From Gammaproteobacteria bacterium (GTDB lineage: Bacteria > Pseudomonadota > Gammaproteobacteria > JAADGQ01): DNA of 64,000 nt. The notes beneath the pieces are model-generated. The model did no database searches and was not told the origin of the DNA. It was given only the letters and a program-made list of their open reading frames with translations. Of this stretch, positions 7,147-39,469 are shown in pieces; positions within the stretch are counted from its first letter, which is position 1; each line of letters opens with the position of its first letter. Made by a program: the position numbers and the translations under genes. Location: the NCBI GenBank assembly GCA_021648145.1, contig JAKITI010000004.1, positions 63,848-127,847 on the forward strand. Direction: 5' to 3'.

Positions 7147-8217
7147 CTATTTTTTCAATTCGGTATAGAGTAAAAAAACCTTATTGACAATAGTTTTGAT
7201 ATTAAATTTATTGTCAATAAGTGCGAGACTCTCTTTACCCATCCTTTCTCTCAAGGCCTTGTCACTGCATAATTTTTCTAACGCGCCTTTGAGCCCCAAG
7301 ATATCGCCAGGATTAATGAGGTAGCCGTTTTTCCCTTCAATAACCGCTTCAGGAATACCGCCGATGGGAGTAGATATAATAGGAGCTCCAGCGGCCATAG
7401 CCTCTAAAATAGATCCTGGAAGACCTTCATTATAAGAAGGGAGAACATGGATGTCAGTTTTTCTAAAAACCTCAATTTTTCTCTCACCAGAAATCCATCC
7501 AAGTAGTTGAACGGAATTTTCCAAGTTATTTTTTTTTATAAAATCATCTACTTTTTCGATCTCACCATCACCACCTAAAAGTAATTTTGCATTTGGATAT
7601 TCCGTGGTTAATTGTTTGAAAGCTTCGAGTAGGTCATAAATACCCTTTCTTTTACCCAGCCGTCCCATAAAGGAAATGACAATATATTCACCATTGTCAA
7701 TTTTTCCTCTGAATTTATTGGTTGAAGCGCCATTGTAAATAATAACAATTTTTTTATTGGTAGTAATTTTGTTTATGAATCTTTTCCACTCTTCTGATAG
7801 TACGATAATAGCGTCACAGTTATCGAACATCCAACTGATTAATTTTTTCTGTAGTTTATTTCCACTATTATAGAACACCTTAAACTCGGAGCCATGTAAG
7901 TGAATAATAACTTTAGACTGTTTGAATTTGGCTGTTGTAAAAAAAATAAGTTTTCGATAAAAACTGATATAACTTGATAAATGAATATGAACAATATCAA
8001 TTGGCTTAAAGCAGCGAATAACGAAGTGAAAATAGGCTTTTATAGCCTGATGTAATTTTAATGCCTGATGTCCCGGTGCATTTTCATTCAGAGTGGAAAT
8101 GTAATCAAAGTCCACAAGGGACTTGATTCCGGATTCTATCCAGTTACTAACAACAGTTGAAATCCCACCAGTGGCATCAGGGTGCGCACCTAACATGACA
8201 ATTTTAAGTTTTTTCAT
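7147..8217 (-). CDS. glycosyltransferase family 4 (GT1/GT-B fold)
   Basis: 356 aa. It has a GT4 C-terminal signature LPSYNEGLPGSILEAMAAGAPIISTPIGGIPE. The sequence is AT-rich. Confidence 0.8.
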   Translation of the reverse strand: MKKLKIVMLGAHPDATGGISTVVSNWIESGIKSLVDFDYISTLNENAPGHQALKLHQAIKAYFHFVIRCFKPIDIVHIHLSSYISFYRKLIFFTTAKFKQSKVIIHLHGSEFKVFYNSGNKLQKKLISWMFDNCDAIIVLSEEWKRFINKITTNKKIVIIYNGASTNKFRGKIDNGEYIVISFMGRLGKRKGIYDLLEAFKQLTTEYPNAKLLLGGDGEIEKVDDFIKKNNLENSVQLLGWISGERKIEVFRKTDIHVLPSYNEGLPGSILEAMAAGAPIISTPIGGIPEAVIEGKNGYLINPGDILGLKGALEKLCSDKALRERMGKESLALIDNKFNIKTIVNKVFLLYTELKK

Positions 8218-8608
8218 AAATTAACCTGATTACGTATAAGTTTCCACTATTTTTAGAACCTGAAGTCATAAATGACACAAACCCCAGAGTAGATGTGATA
8301 TAAATTTTTTTAGGGTTGAATAATTCAATTGGGTAAACCCCCAGCTATGCTGGGGAGACTCATATAGGTTTTACCGAGACTACGGTAACGTGTACTTTCA
8401 GTTCTCGACCAAGAGAAAAGGAAAGTAAACCTATGCGAGACTACAAGAGTTTCGGTGTTTGTCAACATAGTTGGCACTCTTTTGTTAAATATTTACCCAG
8501 CCATTTCCGAGCCAATATTTTCAAGTCGATCTGGGTTTAAAAACACCGTGCCAATTGGTTCACAATTTGGTAGTGGGTTAAATCTGAAATTGTTCTATAA
8601 TAATCGCC

Positions 8609-21581: not shown

Positions 21582-22298
21582 TCAAGAAATAGTGCAAAAA
21601 TCTTTCATATATTTTCGGCTGACGGGGATGATCGCACCGCTAACGGTGTGAATCTCTCCTAAACCATTTTCCTGCTTTGTGATCATTTTTATACAGTCTG
21701 GATCGACTAAATGTTGTCGGTAACATCGTACTAATGGAGTATTTTCTTCAAGCACTTTTAAAGAAAGGTCGGTATGAAATTCCTCGCAATTTTTGCCCGT
21801 AACAATATGCACTCCCGTAGTAGTAGTGGAGAATGCACGACAGACATCTTTGACATTGATGAGATAGTTGCAACCATCTTTGTAGCAGGGAATAAATTGC
21901 ATGGTTGTAGATAAGATTTTTACGATATCAGGCTGTGGTCGATAGTCCTCTTTAAGACGCTCTAATGTGATGTTTAAACGATCTGTTTTTACAGGTTTTA
22001 ATAAAAAGTCGATAGCATTTTTTTCAAATGCTTCGATTGCATATTCAGGGTAAGCGGTGACAAAAACAATGCGTGGCATGTCATCTTTATCCAGCATGCG
22101 AAGCATCTCTATGCCTGATATTTTGGGCATGATGATATCAAGAAAAACAACATTCGGGCGCTTGCTGTTGATCTCTTTAATTGCTTCGAATGCATTGGCG
22201 CATTTACCCACGATGTTAAAATCAGGGTCTGCCCCGATCTTTTCTTCCAGATCATCACGCGCGTGAGGTTCATCATCAACAATGAGGGCATTAATCAT
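21582..22298 (-). CDS. LytTR-family response regulator (receiver plus LytTR DNA-binding domain)
   Basis: 238 aa with a receiver domain (ALIVDDEPHARDDL...VVFLDIIMP) and a C-terminal LytTR domain. It overlaps the lytS stop by 4 nt. Confidence 0.85.
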   Translation of the reverse strand: MINALIVDDEPHARDDLEEKIGADPDFNIVGKCANAFEAIKEINSKRPNVVFLDIIMPKISGIEMLRMLDKDDMPRIVFVTAYPEYAIEAFEKNAIDFLLKPVKTDRLNITLERLKEDYRPQPDIVKILSTTMQFIPCYKDGCNYLINVKDVCRAFSTTTTGVHIVTGKNCEEFHTDLSLKVLEENTPLVRCYRQHLVDPDCIKMITKQENGLGEIHTVSGAIIPVSRKYMKDFCTIS

Positions 22299-22301
22299 CT
22301 T

Positions 22302-24110
22302 TTACTCCTTATTATATGGCAGGCGGATATTGACTTGAGTCCACTGCTCCGGTTCACATGAAATAGTAATTCCATAATCCTGACCGTAGCGTATTTTAAT
22401 CCGTTCATCTATTTTCAGTCCGATTCCATGCGGGCTGTTTTTTATATACAGACCCGCATTATCTTCGACGGTCAAGGTCAGCTTATCACTATTTGTCGCA
22501 CAGCTGATCTTGATTACGCCTGTGCCAAGTAATTCACTTGTGCCATGTTTTATGGCATTTTCAACAATCGGTTGTAACGTAAAAACAGGAATCACTTGAT
22601 CAAATAAATACTCTGGAATATCAATATGAATTTGCAAGCGGTCTTCAAAACGTGCTTTTTCTATTGCGAGATAAGATTTGATATGTTCCAGCTCGGATCG
22701 AAGCGTGATGGTATCATCAGATGTTTCCAGGCTTTTTCTGAAAAAATCCGATAAATGATGCAATAAATCACGCGCTCTTTCGGGTTGTTTTTTTGTGATA
22801 TGGCTGATGGTTGCGAGTGCATTATAGAGGAAATGCGGATTGACTTGCGCAGTTAATAGCTTGTATTGGTCTTCAATGCGTAATTCTCGTTGGCGTTCAT
22901 AACGACCGGCGAGAATCTTGCTGGACAGAAGCTCAGCAATATTTTCACCCAGCTTTCTATTAATGTTACGAAATAGTTTATTTTTAGGTTCATATAGCCT
23001 GATGGTACCAATCACCTGATTGTAAACATCATCTTTGAGAGGAATAATCAATACCGAACCCAATCCACAGAACGCTTCGCGTCTGCACTGATAGTTTCGC
23101 CTGAATATCACTTTATTATTCTTAATTGCCTCCAGAGTATCTTCTGAAGCAATGAGTGAGCCGGGTATGTGATGATCATCCCCCAAGCCAGTAAATGCGA
23201 GTAGCCTTTTTTTATCGGTAATGGCGACAGCACCTACTTGGGTTTCCTGTTGTATGATTTCAGTAATTTGCTTGCTGGATTCTGGGTTAAATCGAGTAAA
23301 TATGATGCTTGCGGTTTTCTCTGCAATTTGCCATGCCGTCGTGCTGCTGCGGAGTGTGTCACAAGCACGTTTTTGTTCCTTGATCATATACATGATCAAT
23401 GCTACACCTGCAGAGTTAGCAATTAACATCGGCGGCGCAATCTCCTTAATCAAAACCCAAGTCTTGGATATTTCGTTAAAAAATAGTCCGAATAGTAAAA
23501 TAATTAACATGTGTCCCAGCACGGCAATCAGGGTGACTAAAAAGACAGCTCTAGGAGAAAATAGACGCTCCATTCGGCCGCGATGTGATAAGTAGTAGTG
23601 TACAAAACCTGCTAGAAGTCCTTCGAATGTGGTGGCCACCGCACAGGCGATATCAATATAGTGAATAGGGTCCGTCGGTGATGACATGTACCAAACTCGA
23701 TGAATTCCCCCAGTGAACCCGACAAAAAAGCCAACGACAGGGCCACCCAATAGTCCACCGAGTACCGCCCCAATGGCTCTGGTGTTGGCTATTGCACTCT
23801 CTGATTCAAATGATTGCTCGCTTAGAAATGTTCCCAGAATACAAAAACCGGAAAATACCAGATAGATAACAATTTTATCTGGTAGAGAGAGCGTGTTGTT
23901 GACCAGGTCAGTAAACACAGGTGTTTTGGTGAATAAATAAGCTAAACCTAAAAACACGAGAACGTGCAGCAATAAAGGAGTGATGTGTTCTAAAAATAGA
24001 AGGTCTTGCATGAGTGTTTCGCTGTTATAAAAATATTTATACGACAGATTAACACAAGAAAAAAATCCACTCAGATGATATGGCTGCCACTTAGAAGCTA
24101 TATCAACCAC
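22302..24110 (-). CDS. LytS/BtsS-type sensor histidine kinase (5TM-Lyt plus GAF plus His_kinase plus HATPase)
   Basis: It has an N-terminal multi-TM 5TMR-LYT region, a GAF-like middle, the His_kinase motif NPHFLYNALATISHI and an ATPase domain. The real start is probably MQDLLFLEHI near 24011. The track start at 24110 would overlap the regulatory box. Confidence 0.85.
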   Translation of the reverse strand: MVDIASKWQPYHLSGFFSCVNLSYKYFYNSETLMQDLLFLEHITPLLLHVLVFLGLAYLFTKTPVFTDLVNNTLSLPDKIVIYLVFSGFCILGTFLSEQSFESESAIANTRAIGAVLGGLLGGPVVGFFVGFTGGIHRVWYMSSPTDPIHYIDIACAVATTFEGLLAGFVHYYLSHRGRMERLFSPRAVFLVTLIAVLGHMLIILLFGLFFNEISKTWVLIKEIAPPMLIANSAGVALIMYMIKEQKRACDTLRSSTTAWQIAEKTASIIFTRFNPESSKQITEIIQQETQVGAVAITDKKRLLAFTGLGDDHHIPGSLIASEDTLEAIKNNKVIFRRNYQCRREAFCGLGSVLIIPLKDDVYNQVIGTIRLYEPKNKLFRNINRKLGENIAELLSSKILAGRYERQRELRIEDQYKLLTAQVNPHFLYNALATISHITKKQPERARDLLHHLSDFFRKSLETSDDTITLRSELEHIKSYLAIEKARFEDRLQIHIDIPEYLFDQVIPVFTLQPIVENAIKHGTSELLGTGVIKISCATNSDKLTLTVEDNAGLYIKNSPHGIGLKIDERIKIRYGQDYGITISCEPEQWTQVNIRLPYNKE

Positions 24111-24112
24111 TC
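24085..24112 (+). promoter_or_regulatory. LytTR-type direct-repeat box (GCCACTTA-N12-ACCACTCA), copy 1 of a ~130-bp conserved promoter module
   Basis: It lies in the divergent lytS / lipoprotein intergenic region. The flanks aaaaatatttatacgacagattaacaca...ccactcagatg and cctgatttgt are conserved in the other copies. Confidence 0.5.
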
Positions 24113-24153
24113 ACCTGATTTGTACTTTCTCAGTAATTGATGAGCGTTATATT

Positions 24154-25089
24154 GTGGGTAAGACCAGTTGTTTGACTGTCGTGTGCGAAGTAATTTCGCT
24201 TAATTTTTTTGATAAGGGAAATGTAATGAAAAAACTATTGTGGTGTATGTTTGCTATTTTTTTAACACTATTGAGTGCGTGTGGTGGTGACGGTGTTACC
24301 GAACCCAACGAACCAAAAATTACAAGTTTTCGTGCGGATAAAAACAGCATCATAGCTGGAACAGGAGTCAACTTAACACCTATTTTTTCTGATGGTACTG
24401 GGTCCATTGATAACGGTATAGGTCAAGTTACATCTGGCATCTCTGTCTTAGTAACCCCCGACTCTACAACAAAGTACACCTTAACGGTGAAAAATTCTGA
24501 TGGAAAATCAGTAATGTCAACTACTACCGTTAGGGTTAGTGAACCACCTAACTTACTAGAAAAGCTCGCTGGAAAGGTGAGGTTTGATTATACAGTGAAC
24601 TCGTTTCTCTTTAGTACCACTGCAAATCTTTCCAGCATAGTCTTTAATGGAGAGAAGTATCTTTTTGATAGAGTAACAAGTACCGCTTGCCTCCTTTTTG
24701 AATCACCTTCATTTGAATACTTTTGTATGAAAACAAACACCTCGGGCTCAAAAGATGTTTTTGTATTTGACATGACATCTGACACAAAAGGGGCGGGGCA
24801 ATATGAGTTTTGTCGAAGCAACGAATCAGACGAAGAGTGTGCTTTAGGGATTATGAGTCCAGATGGAGACGTTAAAGTCACCGTAATAAGTAGCTCACCT
24901 AATAGACAGTTAGAGTTAGTGATACCAACAAATTTTGAGTATATCTATAATGATGTAGAGATATACAAGCAAGGCAGTGATATGGACTCTTACTCAGAGA
25001 CTACTGTGCTGAATAGTGATAGTAAGCAAGTTGATACATTAAGTGAACGTATTGAAGCACTTCAACAAATAATCAGAGGTCATTTATGA
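24154..25089 (+). CDS. lipoprotein of unknown function
   Basis: The likely start is MKKLLWCMFAIFLTLLSACGGDG at 24226, with a lipobox LLSAC. The protein is Ser/Thr-rich and looks secreted. Confidence 0.55.
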   Translation: MGKTSCLTVVCEVISLNFFDKGNVMKKLLWCMFAIFLTLLSACGGDGVTEPNEPKITSFRADKNSIIAGTGVNLTPIFSDGTGSIDNGIGQVTSGISVLVTPDSTTKYTLTVKNSDGKSVMSTTTVRVSEPPNLLEKLAGKVRFDYTVNSFLFSTTANLSSIVFNGEKYLFDRVTSTACLLFESPSFEYFCMKTNTSGSKDVFVFDMTSDTKGAGQYEFCRSNESDEECALGIMSPDGDVKVTVISSSPNRQLELVIPTNFEYIYNDVEIYKQGSDMDSYSETTVLNSDSKQVDTLSERIEALQQIIRGHL

Positions 25090-25410
25090 AGTTTAATGAA
25101 GAAGAAAAAGCAAAATTACTGAGCCTCAATGGAGTGGGATCTACGGTGATTAAGCGATTTGAAGAAATAGGAATTAGTTCATTTAAAGAACTGAGTAAAT
25201 ATAGCGTCGATGAGGTTGCGAATAGAGTGGCGGACATGCTTGGAACGACTTGTTGGAAGAATAGTCCACAAGCACGAGCAGCCATAAAATCCGCATTAGA
25301 ACTGGCCAAAAAGGGATAAATAGTTAAGAGGCTGTCTGGTTAAAATGGTATCAGCTGAAAAGGTCTGGCCGGTCACACCACAAGGAAGTCACTTTTGCTC
25401 TGGTTGCCAG
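25000..25410 (+). repeat. ~410-bp duplicated segment, copy A (3' end of the lipoprotein gene, the HhH gene and a downstream spacer)
   Basis: About 85-90% identical to 30785..31200 when compared by eye. Example: ...aagtgaacgtattgaagcacttcaacaaataatcagaggtcatttatgaag aligns with ...aagtgaacgtattgaaacactttagcaaataatcagaggttatttatgaag. Confidence 0.6.
25086..25319 (+). CDS. small helix-hairpin-helix DNA-binding protein (Cdd1/PF11731-like)
   Basis: 77 aa with an HhH motif LNGVGSTVIKRFEEIGISSFKEL. A near-identical copy lies at 30874..31107. Confidence 0.55.
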   Translation: MKFNEEEKAKLLSLNGVGSTVIKRFEEIGISSFKELSKYSVDEVANRVADMLGTTCWKNSPQARAAIKSALELAKKG

Positions 25411-25614
25411 GCTCCTGTGCGGGCAATCCATACCGAACATGAATTTACTTGCCTTATGCTATTGTTTTCATTGCCAATAATTTTCGCTTCACTTGAGCGG
25501 CTCACAATTACAAGCCTCTGGCTTTGCCTGAGGAATTTGGCTTGTAGATATGACAACTATAATGACACAGGGGATGGATGCAGCTCTTGTAAAATCCATT
25601 TAGCACGAGTGACG

Positions 25615-25642
25615 ACCACTTAGAAGCTATATCAACCACTCA
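25615..25642 (+). promoter_or_regulatory. LytTR-type direct-repeat box (ACCACTTA-N12-ACCACTCA), copy 2
   Basis: About 155 bp upstream of the S8 peptidase start. It is followed by the conserved module tail cctagtttgtgcttttccagtcatag...tattgtttgtaaagg. Confidence 0.5.
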
Positions 25643-25766
25643 CCTAGTTTGTGCTTTTCCAGTCATAGTGAAGACTCTATTGTTTGTAAAGGCTCAGAGT
25701 TACATTCAATGCGTAGCGATGGCAAATCTGGTATTAATAGCCAGCGACTTCAATATGATATGAAAA

Positions 25767-27620
25767 ATGAAAGCCAACATATGGACAGCAATAAAAATGA
25801 AAGCAGTTATTCCATTGTTTATAACAATAATTTTTATCTCGGGTTGTGGAAGTGGGGCGGAGCCACCTCCACCTGTTAGTTATACAATTACAGTCAAGGC
25901 AGGCGTGGGGGGAGCAATTTCATCAACAACAGACCTTGATCGTGTTAATGACCCAGTTCGTTTTGATGTGCGCCCGAACAGAAGCTATACCATTGATACC
26001 ATAAGTGGTTGCGGGGGTTCGCTATCAGGCCCTACTCGATTAGGTGAATATTCTTATACGACACAGACACTCACAGCGGATTGCACAATTAATATTTCAT
26101 TTAAAGCTTTAGGTGACCCACTGTATTCTGACCAGTGGCATCTAAAAAACATAGGGCAGGCAGGGAGTGATAAAAACCCCGGAAAAGTGGGGGAAGATAT
26201 TAATGTTGAGGCTGTGTGGAACGGTTGTCAGGAAAATTCATGCCGAGGTGAAGGGGTGCGTATTGTTATCGTTGATGATGGCCTGGAAATTGGGCATGAA
26301 GATTTAAAGGCGAATGTGGTGTTGGGTAAAAGTTACGATTATATTGACAACGATACTGACCCATCGCCATCAGTTACAGAGCCAAGTGATGAAGCCATAC
26401 ATGGTACCAGTGTTGCGGGTATTATCGCTGCACGAGATTCGAATGGAGTCGGTGTCGTCGGTGTTGCGCCGCGTGCAGAGTTGGTTAGTTATAACTATTT
26501 AAATGCACAAACCGTAATGAATGAAAGTGATGCGATGACTCGGGATGCAGCACAAAATCATGTTTCCAACAATAGCTGGGGAACAGTTGACGGTACGGGA
26601 TGGCTTATGGATTCTCCCGCAGTATGGCGTACCGCTATAGATACTGGCCATCGTATTGGGCGGCATGGCTTGGGAACCATTTACGTTTGGGCGGCAGGTA
26701 ATGGTTATATCGGAAGTTTTTTGGGCAGACCATTCATAGCAGATAATTCAAATTATGATGGTTATGCGAATTATCGAGGCGTGATTGCAGTGGGTTCAGT
26801 GACAAATTCAGGAAAGAGCTCTTCTTATAGTGAGCAAGGTGCAAACCTGTTAATCAGTGCGCCGGGGGGTGAATTTTGTGATACACATGCAATTGTGACA
26901 ACCGATATCACTGGAGCGAATGGTTATAATTCAGGTTCGTCAAATAATGACTATGACGATAGTAACTATACCGCTTGTTTTGGAAGCACTTCCGCTGCAG
27001 CGCCAATGGTATCCGGTGTTGCAGCCTTGATATTGCAGGCCAATCCTCGTTTGGGTTGGCGTGATGTGCACGCTATTTTAGCACGCAGTGCCAGAAAAAA
27101 TAATCCGTCCCAATCAGATTGGAAAACAAATGGAGCAGGGCTCTCTATCAATCACAACTATGGTTTTGGTGTGGTGGATGCACAGGCGGCTGTTTTATTG
27201 GCAAAAAAATGGGTGAATTTACCGTCGGAGAAAAAATATTCAACTGCTAAAAAGGATGTCAATATAAGCATTGGTGATAATGATGATACTTCTGTTGGCT
27301 CGACCTTGAATGTGGTTTCAAGTGGTATTAATAATATTGAGTTTATTGAAATTACATTCAGGGCAGATGACCATGCTTACTCGGGTGACCTGGAAATCAT
27401 ACTGCTCAATCAGACGACAGGCACGACCAGTCGTTTAGCAGAGAAGCATGAGTGTGGTGGCTTGTTCGGTTGTATTTTGCCTTATAAAAATTGGCGTTTT
27501 GGTTCAACACGCCACCTTGGTGAAAGCGCAGATGGCGATTGGCAGCTCATCGTTAAAGATAAGGCTGATGGTGATACAGGAACATTTCAGTCATGGAAGC
27601 TGACTTTTTATGGAACTTAG
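25767..27620 (+). CDS. subtilisin/kexin-like serine peptidase (S8) with a C-terminal P-domain (proprotein-convertase type), lipoprotein
   Basis: The likely start is MKAVIPLFITIIFISGC (lipobox) at 25797. The catalytic triad regions are VIVDDGLE, HGTSVAGIIAA and GTSAAAPMVSGVAAL. The C-terminal P-domain ends DWQLIVKDKADGDTGTFQSWKLTFYG. Confidence 0.85.
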   Translation: MKANIWTAIKMKAVIPLFITIIFISGCGSGAEPPPPVSYTITVKAGVGGAISSTTDLDRVNDPVRFDVRPNRSYTIDTISGCGGSLSGPTRLGEYSYTTQTLTADCTINISFKALGDPLYSDQWHLKNIGQAGSDKNPGKVGEDINVEAVWNGCQENSCRGEGVRIVIVDDGLEIGHEDLKANVVLGKSYDYIDNDTDPSPSVTEPSDEAIHGTSVAGIIAARDSNGVGVVGVAPRAELVSYNYLNAQTVMNESDAMTRDAAQNHVSNNSWGTVDGTGWLMDSPAVWRTAIDTGHRIGRHGLGTIYVWAAGNGYIGSFLGRPFIADNSNYDGYANYRGVIAVGSVTNSGKSSSYSEQGANLLISAPGGEFCDTHAIVTTDITGANGYNSGSSNNDYDDSNYTACFGSTSAAAPMVSGVAALILQANPRLGWRDVHAILARSARKNNPSQSDWKTNGAGLSINHNYGFGVVDAQAAVLLAKKWVNLPSEKKYSTAKKDVNISIGDNDDTSVGSTLNVVSSGINNIEFIEITFRADDHAYSGDLEIILLNQTTGTTSRLAEKHECGGLFGCILPYKNWRFGSTRHLGESADGDWQLIVKDKADGDTGTFQSWKLTFYGT

Positions 27621-27652
27621 AAACGGTCACAAAATTTCAGGATGGTTTTATT

Positions 27653-28285
27653 ATGAATAAAATATTATTACGTCAATGTGTCTTCGTCAGTATGGTCATA
27701 GGGTTGGCGGTATTTCAGGTAAGCTGGGCGATGAGTTCAAAGCCTGACGTTAATGCTAAACAACTGGTAGAGCCAGCTCACTATTTTTGGTATGACGGAG
27801 ATGAAAAACGATCCGTTTGGGTGAACCCAAAATTAATGGTTGAATTTAAGTTGCAGCCCGAGACGAGCACTCAACTACAATTACGTTACGCGGCAAAAGA
27901 GATTGATGTACCGTCATCTTTTGTTCGCCTTTGGGAAATTGAAAGTGATCTGTCAACCAAAGCTGTTGCTAGAAGTTTGAATAAAGATGTGGGTAGCCAG
28001 CTCTCTCCTGTATTGCATGATAGTGCGTCAATCTCTGGAGCCAAAAGAGCGTTGCCTGGAAATGTTTTGGTTCAAATGAGAGCTGATTGGAGCATGGGGC
28101 AAATAGAGTCCTGGTTTGAAATGCATGATTTAATCATGATTAAATCTTTAACTTTTGCGGAAAATTCATTTTTGATCAGATCAAATCCGGGGTTGGACGC
28201 ACTGAATACGGCAAACCGAATTTACGAAACAGGTGACGTAGTATTGGCTTCACCTGATTGGTGGCAGGAAATGGTTGCTAGGTAA
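27653..28285 (+). CDS. secreted protein co-transcribed with the S8 peptidase (possible cognate chaperone, ASP/ORF2-like arrangement)
   Basis: The track ORF starts at 27593 but the signal peptide MNKILLRQCVFVSMVIGLAVFQVSWA begins at 27653. There is no detectable catalytic motif. It follows the protease with a 30-nt gap. Confidence 0.45.
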   Translation: MNKILLRQCVFVSMVIGLAVFQVSWAMSSKPDVNAKQLVEPAHYFWYDGDEKRSVWVNPKLMVEFKLQPETSTQLQLRYAAKEIDVPSSFVRLWEIESDLSTKAVARSLNKDVGSQLSPVLHDSASISGAKRALPGNVLVQMRADWSMGQIESWFEMHDLIMIKSLTFAENSFLIRSNPGLDALNTANRIYETGDVVLASPDWWQEMVAR

Positions 28286-28355: not shown

Positions 28356-29900
28356 ATGCATAAAAAAAAGTATTGGCTGCTTGCTCTAGTCATTTTGTTT
28401 ATATGTCTATTTATATCAAACCAAGCCTTTGCTGCTGAGAGCGCAGGTTTCGGAGAAGCGCTTGATAGATGGTTTGGAGTGTTAGTCGGTTATATTGCTG
28501 CCGTTTCATTTTTTGATCTGCTTTTTTTCAGCGATGATTACAAACTCCCCTTCGCCGTTGCATGGCTCATTGTCGGTGCTGTTTTTTTCACATTCCGTAT
28601 GGGGTTTATTAACGTAAGAGCCTTCACTCATGCGATTCAATGTGTTCGCGGGCGTTATGACAATCCAAACGATGTCGGTGAAACCAGCCACTTTCAAGCG
28701 CTGACAACTGCACTTTCTGCGACTGTCGGTTTAGGCAATATTGCCGGTGTTGCAATCGCCATCAGTATCGGTGGGCCAGGCGCTACATTCTGGATGATTG
28801 TGGCCGGTTTTTTAGGAATGACGGCTAAATTCACTGAGTGTACTTTGGCGCAGATGTATCGAAAAGTTCGCCCTGATGGTCATATCATGGGGGGGGCTAT
28901 GGAATATTTAAGTCAGGGACTGGCTGAAATGGGCTGGGCCAGGTTAGGTAAAGTGCTGGCCGTGTTGTTTTGTATTCTATGTATTTTGGGCTCTTTCGGT
29001 GGCGGCAATGCTTTTCAAGTTAATCAATCACTCGGAATCATCCAGCAGCATATTCCCTTGTTAGAGAGCAGTCCCTGGATTTTTGGGCTATTTATGATGG
29101 TATTAGTTGGTGCAGTTATTATTGGTGGAATTAAGCGTATTGCCCATGTGACTGAAGCCATTGTACCTACAATGTGTGCTATCTATGTAGCCGCCTGCCT
29201 CTGGGTTATCTTAACCAATATGCCTGAAATTCCTGCAGCATTTTCACTGATTTTTACGGGTGCTTTTTCACCTGAAGCTGGGTTGGGCGGTATCATCGGT
29301 GTTTTGATTATTGGCTTTCAACGTGCCGCATTTTCCAATGAAGCTGGCATTGGCTCAGCAGCCATCGCTCACTCAACCGCAAAAACAAAATATCCAGTGC
29401 GTGAGGGTATTGTTTCACTGCTTGAGCCTTTTATTGATACCATCATTATCTGCACAATGACTGCTTTAGTCATCATTATTACGGGTGTTTACAATAGCCC
29501 TGAAACGGCTGAATTGGTTGCAAATAGACAAGGTGCAGCGTTAACCAGTGTTGCTTTTGGCAGTGCCATTTCATGGTTTCCTATCATACTGAGCATATGT
29601 GTCACTCTATTTGCTTTCAGTACAATGATCGCTTGGTCTTTTTATGGTGAGCGTTGCTGGTCATACCTATTTGGTGATCAATCCTCCATTATTTATAAAT
29701 TATTGTTTTTATTGTTTGTTTTATTAGGCTCCGTGGTCAGCGCCCCTAATGTTTTAGATTTCAGTGATTTAATGATTTTACTCATGGCAATTCCTAATCT
29801 GATTGGCCTCTATTTTCTGCATGGGAAAGTAAAAATAGCACTGCGTAGTTATATGAAAAAATTAAAGAGTGGTGAATTTGAAAAAGAGCGTCAGCATTGA
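28356..29900 (+). CDS. alanine/glycine:cation symporter (AGCS family)
   Basis: 514 aa with about 11 TM helices and AGCS hallmark blocks GLGNIAGVAIAISIGGPGATFWMIVAGFLGMTAKFTEC and QRAAFSNEAGIGSAAIAHS. Confidence 0.85.
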   Translation: MHKKKYWLLALVILFICLFISNQAFAAESAGFGEALDRWFGVLVGYIAAVSFFDLLFFSDDYKLPFAVAWLIVGAVFFTFRMGFINVRAFTHAIQCVRGRYDNPNDVGETSHFQALTTALSATVGLGNIAGVAIAISIGGPGATFWMIVAGFLGMTAKFTECTLAQMYRKVRPDGHIMGGAMEYLSQGLAEMGWARLGKVLAVLFCILCILGSFGGGNAFQVNQSLGIIQQHIPLLESSPWIFGLFMMVLVGAVIIGGIKRIAHVTEAIVPTMCAIYVAACLWVILTNMPEIPAAFSLIFTGAFSPEAGLGGIIGVLIIGFQRAAFSNEAGIGSAAIAHSTAKTKYPVREGIVSLLEPFIDTIIICTMTALVIIITGVYNSPETAELVANRQGAALTSVAFGSAISWFPIILSICVTLFAFSTMIAWSFYGERCWSYLFGDQSSIIYKLLFLLFVLLGSVVSAPNVLDFSDLMILLMAIPNLIGLYFLHGKVKIALRSYMKKLKSGEFEKERQH

Positions 29901-29940
29901 GCTGACAACTTGTTTTTGTTATTTGGGCTGGTACGGAAAA

Positions 29941-30063: not shown

Positions 30064-30101
30064 TTAACAAAGTAAAAAAACCCCACTCAGATGGAATAAC
30101 T

Positions 30102-30129
30102 GCCACTTAGAAGCTATATCAACCACTCA
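30102..30129 (+). promoter_or_regulatory. LytTR-type direct-repeat box (GCCACTTA-N12-ACCACTCA), copy 3
   Basis: About 140 bp upstream of the 30271 ORF. The full module is present: ccccactcagatggaataactgccacttagaagctatatcaaccactcacctgatttgtgcttttccagtcatga.... Confidence 0.5.
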
Positions 30130-30784: not shown

Positions 30785-31200
30785 GTACTTACTGTGCTTA
30801 ATAGCGATAGCGAGCTAAGCTGATACATAAGTGAACGTATTGAAACACTTTAGCAAATAATCAGAGGTTATTTATGAAGTTTAATGAAGAAGAAAAAGCA
30901 AAATTACTGAACCTCAAAGGAGTGGGATCTACGGTGATTAAGCGATTTGAAGAAATAGGAATTAGTTCATTTAAAGAACTGAGGAAATATAGCGTCGATG
31001 AGGTTGCGAATAGAGTAGCGGACATGCTTAGAACAACTTGTTGGAAGAATAGTCCACAAGCACGAACAGCCATAAAATCTGCAATAGAACTGGCCAAAAA
31101 GGGATAAATAGTTAAGAGGCTGTATGGTTAAAATGGTTTCAGCTGCAAAGGGCTGAGCCGTCATCACAAGAAAGTCACTTTTGTTCTGGTTTCCACGCCG
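30785..31200 (+). repeat. ~410-bp duplicated segment, copy B (a non-coding remnant of the lipoprotein 3' end, then the HhH gene and spacer)
   Basis: See copy A. The lipoprotein-derived part here has stop codons in all frames and is a remnant. Confidence 0.6.
30874..31107 (+). CDS. small helix-hairpin-helix DNA-binding protein, second copy
   Basis: 77 aa and 70/77 identical to the 25086 protein. Confidence 0.55.
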   Translation: MKFNEEEKAKLLNLKGVGSTVIKRFEEIGISSFKELRKYSVDEVANRVADMLRTTCWKNSPQARTAIKSAIELAKKG

Positions 31201-31480: not shown

Positions 31481-31774
31481 ATGCATGTCACACTGGAAAA
31501 ACTACAATCCTATAAAAGTGAAATTTCTCGTATTGCTGCAAACTATCATGCGAATAATATAAGGGTCTTTGGCTCTGTCGTTCGAGGGGAGTCCTATGAA
31601 AATAGTGACATTGATCTATTGGTTACTTTTCAATCTGGGGCAAGCCTGCTTGATCAGGCGGGTTTGATCAGCGAACTAGAAGGCATGCTTGGTACTACTG
31701 TAGATGTTGTCAGTGACCGCGCTCTTAATCGTCACCTGAGCACAAAAATTTTAAATGAAGCACAACCGCTATGA
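31481..31774 (+). CDS. mntA: MntA-type nucleotidyltransferase antitoxin (type VII TA)
   Basis: 97 aa with the minimal nucleotidyltransferase motif RVFGSVVRGESYENSDIDLLV. Its stop overlaps the downstream HEPN gene start (ATGA). Confidence 0.75.
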   Translation: MHVTLEKLQSYKSEISRIAANYHANNIRVFGSVVRGESYENSDIDLLVTFQSGASLLDQAGLISELEGMLGTTVDVVSDRALNRHLSTKILNEAQPL

Positions 31775-32098
31775 AGCAGCGGAAAATATATGCTCTAGCA
31801 ATTTATGATTGTATTCAACGCATTCATGAGTATACAGACGGTTATGATGTTGATGCTTTTACAAAGGATTACAAAACGCAAGATGCTGTTGTACGAAACC
31901 TTGAAATCATCGGGCAAGCAGTTAAGGACTATGGTGTTGACCATCTAATTGACCATGCTCCAAATGTCCCTTGGTCACAAGTCGCAGGAATGAGAAATAT
32001 CATCGCTCATGAATATCTTGGTGATCGTGTGGGAAACAGTAAAATGGAATCTTCCTCAGTTGGAAAGTGCTATCATAGAGCTCACTCAGCATGAGTGA
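31771..32098 (+). pseudogene. hepT: HepT-type HEPN toxin (DUF86) with an apparent frameshift near its 3' end
   Basis: It has the HEPN motif RNIIAHEY. After ...YLGDRV the annotated frame reads GNSKMESSSVGKCYHRAHSA*. The +1 frame reads IVWETVKWNLPQLESAIIELTQHE*, which is the canonical DUF86 C-terminus. Confidence 0.6.
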
Positions 32099-32218
32099 AG
32101 AATTTTAGTTGTTTTTTATATTCGTAATATTTTATTTCTCGCTTGTTTTCTTCGCTGTATAAAAATATTTATACGACAGATTAACACAGGAAAAAAACCC
32201 CACTCAGATGGAATAACT

Positions 32219-32246
32219 GCCACTTATAAGCTATATCAACCACTCA
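32219..32246 (+). promoter_or_regulatory. LytTR-type direct-repeat box (GCCACTTA-N12-ACCACTCA), copy 4
   Basis: About 115 bp upstream of the SPFH gene. The full ~130-bp module is present, including the aaaaatatttatacgacagattaacaca 5' arm. Confidence 0.5.
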
Positions 32247-33543: not shown

Positions 33544-33693
33544 ATGAACACAATATTATTGGGCATATTTAAACTTACAGGAATAGGAGGACTTTTGCTC
33601 ATAATTATGGTGCTTTGTATAGTGGGTGTTATTAATAGAACTGAAGGTAAAAATAGTAAAGGGGGAGGTTGGGATGATGGCTGTGGCGGCTGA
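33544..33693 (+). CDS. unannotated small single-TM peptide (49 aa), copy A
   Basis: MNTILLGIFKLTGIGGLLLIIMVLCIVGVINRTEGKNSKGGGWDDGCGG*. It has an RBS-like GAAGGAGAG upstream. Its conserved 5' leader is shared with copy B at 36761. It is below the 60-aa ORF-track cutoff. Confidence 0.45.
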   Translation: MNTILLGIFKLTGIGGLLLIIMVLCIVGVINRTEGKNSKGGGWDDGCGG

Positions 33694-33802
33694 CTTTAGT
33701 GTTAGGTGTGACGTTCTCGTATTCAGAAAGCATTTGAGTTGCGTTTGTAAAAATGTGCCGATAAATTAACACAGGGAAAAATCCCACTCAGATGGAATAA
33801 CT

Positions 33803-33830
33803 ACCACTTAGAAGATATATCAACCACTCA
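33803..33830 (+). promoter_or_regulatory. LytTR-type direct-repeat box (ACCACTTA-N12-ACCACTCA), copy 5
   Basis: About 98 bp upstream of the pspA-like ATG at 33928. Confidence 0.5.
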
Positions 33831-36760: not shown

Positions 36761-36931
36761 ATGAACACAATATTATTGGGCATATTTAGTGTCGTTATGA
36801 TAGTGGTCGTAGTGAACATATTCGAACTTACAGGAATAGGAGGACTTTTGCTCATAATTATGGTGCTTGGTATAGTGGGTGTTATTAATAGAACTGAAGG
36901 TAAAAATAGTAAAGGGGAGAGGTTGGGATGA
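36761..36931 (+). CDS. unannotated small TM peptide, copy B (56 aa, with a 1-nt indel near the 3' end relative to copy A)
   Basis: MNTILLGIFSVVMIVVVVNIFELTGIGGLLLIIMVLGIVGVINRTEGKNSKGERLG*. Its leader matches copy A: gatgaagactctattca.ggc.ttgttgagtataaca.tgggcaatataa.tt.agtgaaggagagtataaatgaacac. Confidence 0.4.
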   Translation: MNTILLGIFSVVMIVVVVNIFELTGIGGLLLIIMVLGIVGVINRTEGKNSKGERLG

Positions 36932-36995: not shown

Positions 36996-38747
36996 ATGGA
37001 TTCTGATTATTTTAGTCAAATGCTCTATGCCTTCCCAGGGATTTCCGTACTGGCACCCTGGTTCAACAGCCTACTCATCATAGATATTTTACAGCAGATG
37101 GCCCTGCTATTCGTTGTTGCCTTCCTGTTTAGCCGTTCAGGAGCCTTCGGGCTGTTGGTCAAGGATTCACTTCGGACTCGTGACTGGCTGTTGCTCTACC
37201 TGATTTTTTTTGCTATCTCAGCTATGGGCTCTGTATTGGCTTCCAATGTTCCACTGACGCCAGGCGGCGATGACTGGACTCAGGTGGATACTCGTTCCAT
37301 CGGCGCAGTGCTAGCGGGGTTTTTGGGTGGTCCCTTGCTTGGAACTGCGGTTGGCTTTACCGCTGGCCTCTATCGGTGGAGCCTGGGCGGGCCTACTGCT
37401 ATGGCGGGTTTCATAGGAACCACATTAGTCGGGCTTATAGCAGGTCTGGTCTACATGTTTTTTCTGAAAAAAAATCAGGAGGTACGTTTTGGTTGGAAAA
37501 TTGCGGTAGTCGCCACCTGCGTGGGTGAGCTGATCATGAAGGTCTTGGTGCTGCTTACCGTTCAACCATTCGATAAAGCACTGGCTCTTATTCAGATTAC
37601 CACCGTTCCCAGTTTAATTGGCAATAGTATCGGAGCCGCCTTGTTCGTTACCATATTGAATGATAAAGAGCGTCTTGGTGTCTTGCATACCACCACCGCA
37701 CTGCGTATGGCCAAGCGTTTAGTTGATGTTCTGAAATATGGCTTCAATAAAAGTGCTGCAAGGGCAATCGTCAACATCATCCGCGGAGAGACCCAGATTG
37801 CAACAGTAGCGATCACTGATCATACCAATAAAGTCATGGCAATAACCGGAGTCGGAGCCGATCATCATCACGTCGGTGATGAAATTGTCGCTGACCTGGT
37901 TCAAAACGCCATTGACCAACAGCGGGTTATCTTTATAAATGGTTCAACCGACCGGCTCCATTGTGCAACTTCTGCCAACTGCCCATTACATTCTGCGCTC
38001 ATCGCTCCACTTATTGTGGAGGGAAACGTACTGGGTGTATTGTTGCTGATTGAACCAAAGCGACGTTTTTTCCCCAAGTTGAACCGTGCTTTGGGCGTGG
38101 GCGTTGCCGAGCTTTTATCCGAGCAGATGCAATTAGCTATGTATCAAGAGCAACTGGCCAGCGCAAAACACAAGCTTCTTATTGCACAGATAAATCCACA
38201 TTTTTTATCCAATGCATTGAACACCATCTCTGCCATTGTTCGAACTGATACAGCTCGCGGCAGAGAGCTGTTGACCAAGCTGGCGTTCCTGATGCGCAAG
38301 AGCATAAAATATGAAAATGAAATCAGCACCCTAGAGGAAGAGTTGGAACATATGGATGCACATCTCAGTATCGATCTGGCTCGTTATGGCGACAAACTTC
38401 GAATAGAAAAAAATATCGAACCGAAACTGATGAATGCACTACTTCCCAGTTTTGTTCTTCAGCCATTGGTAGAAAATGCAGTCAAACATGGAACATCTCG
38501 CCTATTGATCCCTGGCATTATCCAGATACGCGCCTATCAAACAGGTGATGGATTGATTAAAATTGAGGTCAAAGACAATGCAGGACAATATCAGCCTAAA
38601 TTATCAGCGACTCAAGGCCTTGGCATGAAAAACGTCGAAGGAAGAATCAAAACGCTATTTGGTCGCCAATATGGATTAAGTATCGACTGTTCACCGAACC
38701 AGCACACCAGCGTTACAATTACCATACCATTCAGGGATCAGCTATGA
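36996..38747 (+). CDS. LytS/BtsS-type sensor histidine kinase, second paralog
   Basis: 583 aa with the same architecture as the 22302..24110 protein and the His_kinase motif NPHFLSNALNTISAIV. Confidence 0.85.
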   Translation: MDSDYFSQMLYAFPGISVLAPWFNSLLIIDILQQMALLFVVAFLFSRSGAFGLLVKDSLRTRDWLLLYLIFFAISAMGSVLASNVPLTPGGDDWTQVDTRSIGAVLAGFLGGPLLGTAVGFTAGLYRWSLGGPTAMAGFIGTTLVGLIAGLVYMFFLKKNQEVRFGWKIAVVATCVGELIMKVLVLLTVQPFDKALALIQITTVPSLIGNSIGAALFVTILNDKERLGVLHTTTALRMAKRLVDVLKYGFNKSAARAIVNIIRGETQIATVAITDHTNKVMAITGVGADHHHVGDEIVADLVQNAIDQQRVIFINGSTDRLHCATSANCPLHSALIAPLIVEGNVLGVLLLIEPKRRFFPKLNRALGVGVAELLSEQMQLAMYQEQLASAKHKLLIAQINPHFLSNALNTISAIVRTDTARGRELLTKLAFLMRKSIKYENEISTLEEELEHMDAHLSIDLARYGDKLRIEKNIEPKLMNALLPSFVLQPLVENAVKHGTSRLLIPGIIQIRAYQTGDGLIKIEVKDNAGQYQPKLSATQGLGMKNVEGRIKTLFGRQYGLSIDCSPNQHTSVTITIPFRDQL

Positions 38748-39469
38748 CCATAAACGTTATTCTCATAGACGATGAAACTTTGGCGCAAGACGAGCTGGCA
38801 TATCTTTTGGAACGGCACGATGACTTTCGCATCGTTGCCCGATGTGAAGATGTTTTCTCTGCCCTGCGTAAAATTCGCGAACACAAACCAGATGCTATTT
38901 TTTTGGACATTATCATGCCCGGACAAGATGGTTTTACGCTGCTCGACTATATGGCGCCGGAGGAACACCACCCTCACGTCGTGGTTGCCACTGGAGGGGA
39001 AAGTGATTTTGCAGTGCGTGCCTATGCAGAGGGTGTGCTGGATTATCTAACAAAACCCATCGAAGAGGAGCGTTTTGATAAAGCGATAGAACGAATTAGG
39101 AGTCAGGTTTCAGACCCAAGTATCGAAGTACTCCCTTATCCAGATCGCATACTCGAAATTATTCCGTGTATTTTCAATCATCGAATAAAATTTATTAAAC
39201 CTAAAGAGATAGAATTTGTACGGTCTGATAGCCGTGGTATTTACGTCATATGTGCAGAAAAAGATTTTTATACCGAATTAACATTAGCTACTTTCGAGAC
39301 TAAAACCACACTCATTCGTTGTCATCGTCAACACATGATAAATCTTGTACATATTGACGAACTTATTCCACTGGAAAATGGTTTAGCAGAAATTAAAACA
39401 ATATCTGGGCATCGCGTTCCGGTCAGTCGTCATTATCTCAAATGTTTAAAGGAAAAATTAGGGGTGTAA
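38744..39469 (+). CDS. LytTR-family response regulator, second paralog
   Basis: 241 aa with a receiver domain (VILIDDETLAQDEL...AIFLDIIMP) plus a LytTR domain. It has a 4-nt overlap with lytS2. Confidence 0.85.
   Translation: MTINVILIDDETLAQDELAYLLERHDDFRIVARCEDVFSALRKIREHKPDAIFLDIIMPGQDGFTLLDYMAPEEHHPHVVVATGGESDFAVRAYAEGVLDYLTKPIEEERFDKAIERIRSQVSDPSIEVLPYPDRILEIIPCIFNHRIKFIKPKEIEFVRSDSRGIYVICAEKDFYTELTLATFETKTTLIRCHRQHMINLVHIDELIPLENGLAEIKTISGHRVPVSRHYLKCLKEKLGV

Follow-up and report, generated by a model that had tools for sequence, protein, structure and literature searches.

How does a kexin-like protease that is encoded without a prodomain fold, and what keeps it inhibited until it is needed? 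This question is raised by two adjacent genes on the plus strand of a 64,000-nucleotide stretch (the window, to which all positions refer unless another locus is named) of contig JAKITI010000004.1 from a Gammaproteobacteria bacterium (assembly GCA_021648145.1). The first gene (25767-27620) encodes a kexin-like protease of family S8, and the second (27653-28285) a secreted protein of 210 amino acids (aa), here called the partner. Eukaryotic convertases typically have an N-terminal cis prodomain that is removed by autoprocessing. At this locus the two genes most likely form a split zymogen, in which the partner probably serves as a trans-acting prodomain, i.e. as folding chaperone and temporary inhibitor of the protease.

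Based on the translation of its open reading frame (ORF), the protease has 617 aa and ends in GDWQLIVKDKADGDTGTFQSWKLTFYGT. The same 617-aa form is found in GenBank as MCF6235470.1, labelled 'S8 family serine peptidase' and derived from a gammaproteobacterial metagenome-assembled genome (MAG). Pfam places a Peptidase_S8 domain (PF00082, E 4.9e-46) at residues 161-468 (nucleotides 26247-27170) and a proprotein-convertase P-domain (P_proprotein, PF01483, E 1.8e-12) at residues 535-614 (27369-27608). By sequence, the closest solved structures are furin (E 1.4e-50), kexin (6e-49) and Aeromonas ASP (3hjr/3wqb_A, 1e-44); the furin and kexin alignments span the P-domain and that to furin reaches the C-terminus. 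The size of the protein, its S8 and P-domains, its C-terminal motif and a lipobox FISGC had all been reported correctly in an earlier description made from the letters alone (the sequence-only reading). The same source considered P-domain S8 proteases to be uncommon in bacteria, which does not hold, as plasmid records alone give 28 matches at E<=1e-20, 12 of them covering at least 80% of the query.

The catalytic residues D170, H212, N312 and S409 align with furin D153, H194, N295 and S368, both in the residue-by-residue furin alignment and in the family alignment, and the DDG motif and oxyanion Asn that mark an S8B (kexin/furin-like) catalytic domain are present. The acidic S1 pocket of furin (D258/D306) corresponds to D275/D331, the S2 residue D154 to D171, and the S4 residues E236 and D264 to E253 and D282. 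Since these subsite acids are kept, cleavage after basic residues is the expected specificity. As judged from its sequence, the protease thus combines the catalytic set, the C-terminal P-domain and the acidic S1 pocket of the S8B group, and lacks the cis prodomain.

The N-terminus carries a lipoprotein signal peptide with the lipobox IIFISG-C27 (25767-25847), in which I-S-G-C27 fits the pattern [LVI][ASTVI][GAS]C, so that the protease is predicted to be a lipoprotein. The homologous proteases inspected share the lipobox Cys and, behind it, a Gly-rich linker (e.g., LLTACGGGG). Translation may in fact begin at an internal ATG (25797, MKAVIPLFITIIFISGC), from which the lipoprotein signal would be more canonical. 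The lipobox and the mature-type N-terminus DPLYSDQW are separated only by a spacer of 86 residues (residues 28-113, 25848-26105), and a cis prodomain is missing; furin, kexin and ASP in their mature forms align from residues 114-139 onwards. A sub-threshold Pfam match to Flg_new_2 (E 0.031) and the analogy with a related locus (L023) make it probable that the spacer is no prodomain but an all-beta domain like the InlB B-repeat; when the spacer was used as a query, no homologue candidates were obtained. In the homologous proteases from 50-odd loci, the lipobox and Gly-rich linker are followed either directly, as is often the case, by DPLYxDQW or by a variable spacer. Some of the spacer-free homologues have just 32-63 open codons upstream of the catalytic domain, and the spacers of the others resemble FN3, Ig or B-repeat domains when read by eye, with none being prodomain-like. 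As these related proteases are without a prodomain and all have a lipobox, the lipoprotein anchor and the absence of a cis prodomain can be considered traits of the whole family.

The partner gene follows after an intergenic spacer of 32 nt (27621-27652), which contains a Shine-Dalgarno sequence AGGA (27639-27642) located 10 nt before the partner ATG and, according to the terminator scan, no terminator-like site. The sequence-only reading was right about a secreted 210-aa protein closely downstream; the distance it gave, 30 nt, is slightly too short. A longer, 230-aa reading from 27593 was rejected because all homologues begin at an MNK-type signal. The first 26 residues (27653-27730) form a predicted Sec signal, MNKILLRQCVFVSMVIGLAVFQVSWA, with cleavage expected after SWA and a mature part starting with MSS. 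A26 is nearly invariant in the family alignment (A1), and the predicted local distance difference test score (pLDDT) of the structural model is below 50 for residues 1-38.

By sequence, the partner resembles no described family. As a single sequence it has no match in Pfam, NCBIfam or the PDB, a 39-sequence profile of its family has no match in the PDB (3wqb_B and 2mk4_A, both ORF2 entries, were not found), and its isolated C-terminal domain matches nothing in Pfam, including Inhibitor_I9 (PF05922), even at E<=10. The family itself is large. A first homologue search gave 38 relatives with lengths of about 205-230 aa. When 1.84 billion representatives were searched with a profile, at least 1332 clusters (defined at 50% identity) reached E<=1e-3, and 951 reached E<=1e-10. 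Of the 150 matches listed, nearly all are stand-alone proteins of about 200 aa, and the source names of the relatives are, without exception, 'hypothetical protein'.

The fold is more informative. AlphaFold2, run with the family alignment, gave a model with a pLDDT of 81.8 overall and about 90 for residues 40-210, in which two tandem ferredoxin-like domains are predicted, followed by a nine-residue tail. The N-terminal domain (residues 43-122, 27779-28018) carries the conserved motif YxWYDGD...NP..AEF in alignment A1. The C-terminal domain (residues 137-201, 28061-28255) is modelled with the beta-alpha-beta-beta-alpha-beta topology of subtilase prodomains and can be superposed on subtilisin prodomains and I9 inhibitors. 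When the model was compared with 48,164 chains, eight of the top ten matches were subtilase prodomains or I9 inhibitors, these being the prodomain of subtilisin BPN', POIA1, the Aspergillus Alp1 prodomain, EpiP, pro-subtilisin E, PAM protease and the PCSK9 prodomain. For the C-terminal domain of the model, the best matches are prodomains of proprotein convertases and subtilisins. A clearly unrelated fold would have spoken against the comparison with ASP-ORF2 that the sequence-only reading had proposed; the comparison passed this check, the model matching the ORF2 chain 3wqb_B as well as convertase and subtilisin prodomains.

The partner ends in PDWWQEMVAR (tail 28256-28282), with Arg210 directly before the stop codon. 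Among 270 relatives collected, 255 have exactly six residues from P[DN]WW to the end. Of these 255, 204 are encoded with a terminal R, 39 with K and eight with Q, so that a basic residue closes the protein in 243 (95%). A cis prodomain, once cleaved, presents the same picture, with a conserved basic residue at its very end and a constant distance between this residue and the last strand of the fold. Arg210 is predicted to be the P1 residue for the S1 pocket of the protease. Two ferredoxin-like domains together with P[DN]WW-x5-[RK]-stop, next to a prodomain-less lipoprotein S8B protease, can serve as the diagnostic signature of the family.

In the two Q-tailed pairs that could be recovered (L055 1-2874 and L054 2025-4767), both S1 aspartates of the protease have been lost. 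L055 additionally has a replaced catalytic Asp (VVGGG), which suggests either a pseudoprotease or a changed specificity. A related, R-tailed pair (L007) is also without both aspartates. The covariation between S1 pocket and tail is therefore a hint and was not counted as a test, since L007 is a counter-example and the loci are related to each other.

Next to these features of the two proteins stands their conserved association. Scanning one genome per species gave 47 partner loci, spanning Gammaproteobacteria (Thiomicrorhabdus, Chromatiales, Marinospirillum), Nitrosomonadales/Gallionella, Nitrospirota, Planctomycetota, Bdellovibrionota and Spirochaetota. In 43 of the 47, a kexin-like protease gene lies immediately upstream of the partner gene on the same strand; the remaining four comprise one inverted order, one locus cut by a contig end and two solo partner genes. 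The genes around the pair differ wholly between loci, and clustering of all locus ORFs revealed no third gene conserved with the pair, the other recurrent ORFs being antisense shadows of the pair itself. In one locus (L057, 4001-5683) the two are joined in a single ORF, P0177, where a partner-like tandem domain (...VTR, followed by KNS...) is fused upstream of a kexin-like catalytic domain. The partner-like region occupies the position of a cis prodomain, which makes P0177 a natural partner-protease fusion. The ORF stops prematurely within the catalytic domain, possibly as the result of a frameshift or of faulty assembly.

Several loci deviate in their arrangement. In L001 and L002 (5699-8618) the pair directly follows rpsH, the gene for ribosomal protein S8, and the rest of the spc operon is missing downstream, indicating either an unusual insertion point or a misassembly. 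Three Thiomicrorhabdus MAGs (L003, L004 and L010; 6337-11456) carry the protease-partner module as a tandem duplicate; between the two copies the N-terminal spacer varies, as does the S2 residue, which is G or N rather than D. The solo partner genes, with no adjacent protease, are found in L005 (6001-6630) and L040 (6001-6450). The former adjoins murJ and a gene for a class A penicillin-binding protein, as assigned by eye from the translations, and an ORF pair nearby (7897-8527) resembles MNT/HepT, also judged by eye.

As proposed in the sequence-only reading, the partner is probably a dedicated one of the ASP/ORF2 type. The missing cis prodomain, the pairing in 43 of 47 loci, the 95% of basic C-termini and the natural fusion are four independent lines of support for this idea. 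Chaperone activity is inferred, along with physical binding, the docking geometry, inhibition and the role of the N-terminal domain. The protease would be exported as a lipoprotein without a prodomain and the partner separately via Sec. In the periplasm, the prodomain-type C-terminal domain of the partner would dock on the catalytic domain, with the tail of fixed length occupying the substrate cleft and inserting its free terminal residue, Arg210, into the acidic S1 pocket (D275/D331). This placement would mimic the cleaved end of a cis prodomain, and the sequence prerequisite for it is present in the form of Arg210, with R/K at that fixed position throughout most of the family. From this position the partner would act as a folding template and, until it is itself released or degraded, as an inhibitor of the protease, as published for ASP/ORF2. 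Two caveats apply: the partner is, as far as its sequence can tell, no homologue of ORF2, and it carries an extra N-terminal domain with an unexplained function.

The main rival is a partner that acts solely as a dedicated, tight-binding inhibitor, an I9-like 'immunity' protein that guards the periplasm until the lipoprotein protease arrives, while the protease folds unaided. It overlaps with the trans-prodomain mechanism, as inhibition belongs to both and the two roles are not mutually exclusive. Against inhibition as the sole role, subtilases without a prodomain generally need one to fold, as established for subtilisin, furin and ASP. Here the whole protease family is without a cis prodomain and one member has the partner fused at that position, which makes an inhibitor-only role unlikely.

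Less likely again is that the partner works away from the active site, as a localisation or substrate-recruitment factor, for example by handing the protease over to Lol or surface export or by presenting substrates via its N-terminal domain. Such a role would suit the conserved YxWYDGD...NP..AEF domain, which has no counterpart in the about 99 ordered ORF2 residues of 3wqb_B, and the fact that the family proteases are all lipoproteins. It leaves the prodomain-type C-terminal domain and the Arg/Lys tail of invariant length unexplained, and no Lol or secretion genes are conserved near the pair. Finally, the absence of a recognised family and a basic end that could be a simple trimmed end might suggest that the partner is a substrate, or a periplasmic protein without relation to the protease that happens to be encoded beside it, but this is strongly disfavoured and highly improbable, as the pairing in 43 of 47 loci holds over Pseudomonadota, Nitrospirota, Planctomycetota, Bdellovibrionota and Spirochaetota in unrelated neighbourhoods, the R/K is the encoded C-terminus and not a processed end, and the fold is that of a prodomain. 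A trans-acting prodomain remains the preferred explanation.

Upstream of the pair lies a promoter-like element (25590-25715) with three BtsR/YehT-type LytTR boxes spaced 20 nt, namely a degenerate CCATTTA (25596-25602), CCACTTA (25616-25622) and CCACTCA (25636-25642). The box-pair site (25615-25642) is situated 125-155 nt upstream of the protease start. The pattern ACCRCTYA-N12-ACCRCTYA has six matches in the window against 0.04 expected, and the box pair is kept upstream of the protease in four related loci (L052, L053, L007 and L054). LytTR operators were recognised as direct repeats of about 8-11 nt, 11-13 nt apart and upstream of a gene (PMC4847170), the arrangement that is found here. In E. 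coli, the YehT site of yjiY reads GCCGCTCA-N12-ACCGCTTA-N13-ACCACTCA (PMC4847170). The boxes of the window, CCCACTCA-N12-GCCACTTA-N12-ACCACTCA, match this BtsS/BtsR (YehU/YehT) operator in sequence, number and spacing, in agreement with the LytTR-box promoter that had been suggested for the pair.

An element of about 150 nt containing these boxes is repeated five times on the plus strand (at 24067, 25596/25616, 30083, 32200 and 33784; alignment A2), with a three-box pattern CTCA / CTTA / CTCA and a 20-nt period. The copies extend over 24067-24122, 25596-25642, 30083-30129, 32200-32246 and 33784-33830. The units behind them are, respectively, a lipoprotein with a 77-aa helix-hairpin-helix (HhH) protein, the protease, partner and a symporter, a DUF4344 fragment with a second HhH copy, Band_7 with a small transmembrane peptide, and PspA-YqiJ_OB-flotillin. 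Together they look like an envelope or membrane-stress regulon under LytS/LytTR control. A LytS-type histidine kinase (22302-24110) and a LytTR response regulator (21582-22298) on the minus strand, identified by Pfam 5TM-5TMR_LYT, His_kinase, Response_reg and LytTR (21582-24110 as a whole), are a candidate regulator of the box-bearing promoters. A second pair of this kind is encoded at 36996-39469 on the plus strand (LytTR regulator at 38744-39469), so that two pairs flank the box-bearing region, either of which may read the boxes.

Judged from these sites, a BtsR-type LytTR regulator is predicted to drive transcription of the pair via the three-box operator in this organism and its closest relatives. 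As more distant family members lie in unrelated contexts, this predicted regulation is lineage-specific. It also differs from E. coli, where BtsSR controls a CstA-type pyruvate transporter, whereas the predicted regulon here comprises the protease pair, the lipoprotein, Band_7, PspA and flotillin. Scans for sigma-70 consensus sequences and terminators gave no more sites than chance, and Rfam identified no RNA family in the 450-nt upstream region, its matches in the window being three tRNAs.

A Na+/alanine symporter gene (28356-29900, Pfam Na_Ala_symp) starts 70 nt downstream of the partner gene on the same strand and is possibly part of the same transcript, the first terminator-like hairpin being predicted at 29890-29906. 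This order is repeated in the closest relative, L052, and is not conserved with the pair in other loci. Further ORFs were noted nearby. Two near-identical 77-aa HhH-like ORFs (25086-25319 and 30874-31107) each close a box-driven unit, and an ORF of 72-73 aa lies upstream of the protease in L052 and L054. A TTG-start ORF at 30271-30774 matches just the C-terminal third of the profile of DUF4344, a putative metallopeptidase, and may be a truncated gene downstream of its box element. Between two box-driven units lies a nucleotidyltransferase (MNT)/HepT-like toxin-antitoxin pair (31481-32094). Two related small hydrophobic peptides (MNTILLGIF...INRTEGKNSKG...) are encoded at 33544-33693 and 36761-36931, the first ending in GGGWDDGCGG. 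These are the small Gly/Cys-rich peptides of the sequence-only reading; they match no family, and nothing connects them with the protease pair in other genomes. They and the lipoprotein had been put forward as possible substrates, for which no support was obtained, as no neighbour is conserved with the pair.

Propeptide-less enzymes are treated as rare exceptions among well-characterised subtilases, and to our knowledge ASP-ORF2 is the one structurally studied external-chaperone case. According to a 2022 survey of MEROPS holotypes, AspA is one of only two subtilases without a propeptide (PMC9549277). The present locus suggests the same split solution in a much larger family, which is unrelated in sequence to ORF2 and is now labelled 'hypothetical protein'. 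It is quite conceivable, and proposed here tentatively, that the family represents a large set of free-standing tandem prodomains that are nameless in protein-family databases, and that a split prodomain is a common route to mature kexin-like lipoproteins in several phyla rather than a peculiarity of Aeromonas. The N-terminal domain may then contribute a function that neither ORF2 nor the cis prodomains have, e.g., timing the release of the enzyme to outer-membrane sorting or to a signal. If this is correct, annotation pipelines would gain a new family to name, and a natural two-piece system would become available for prodomain-assisted folding and inhibition of furin-like enzymes. A kexin-like protease would also be linked to a BtsS/BtsR-type regulon that holds PspA, Band_7 and flotillin genes as well.

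Among known systems, the cis prodomains of furin, PC1/3, PCSK9 and subtilisins differ from the partner in being part of the enzyme, while the partner is encoded by a separate gene and would need no autoprocessing. Its tail is monobasic instead of R-X-K/R-R, and its architecture is that of a tandem of two domains. With respect to Inhibitor_I9, the partner has the fold, as modelled, and is not recognised by the profile hidden Markov model. The free-standing I9 inhibitors, such as Pleurotus POIA1 and yeast PBI2, are eukaryotic, single-domain proteins with no operon link to a prodomain-less protease, unlike the partner.

The greatest likeness is to ASP-ORF2. In both systems, the kexin-like S8 protease has a P-domain and lacks a propeptide, and its gene is followed directly by that of a small Sec-secreted protein. 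The modelled fold of the partner matches the ORF2 chain 3wqb_B with a Foldseek probability of 1.00 and a template modelling (TM) score of 0.62, and both proteins end in a basic residue, Arg210 in the partner and Lys in ORF2. This Lys is in contact with the ASP catalytic centre, and ORF2 serves ASP both as a temporary inhibitor and as a folding helper (PMC5638518). The differences are the size of the proteins (133-148 aa for the ORF2 chains in the PDB, about 184 aa for the mature partner with its second, N-terminal ferredoxin-like domain) and the destination of the enzymes, ASP being secreted and the protease described here being a predicted lipoprotein. The distributions differ too. A PSI-BLAST search with ORF2 identified asp-orf2-like operons in Vibrio, Shewanella, Chromobacterium and Pseudoalteromonas besides Aeromonas (PMC5638518), while the partner family is found mainly in environmental Gammaproteobacteria, Nitrosomonadales, Nitrospirota, Bdellovibrionota and Spirochaetota. 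In Vibrio campbellii, an ORF2-type gene lies beside a propeptide-less kexin-like protease gene, and its product has 2mk4_A/3wqb_B as a weak top match (E about 0.04). Membership of the partner in this sequence family was rejected, as hhalign of alignment A1 against the Vibrio ORF2-type protein gave a probability of 0.2% and phmmer against the PDB returned neither 3wqb_B nor 2mk4_A. Its function is nevertheless most likely ASP-ORF2-like, and the partner is best filed with the external chaperones or split prodomains, as a two-domain form that is tied to a lipoprotein protease and is far more widespread than the reported ORF2 homologues.

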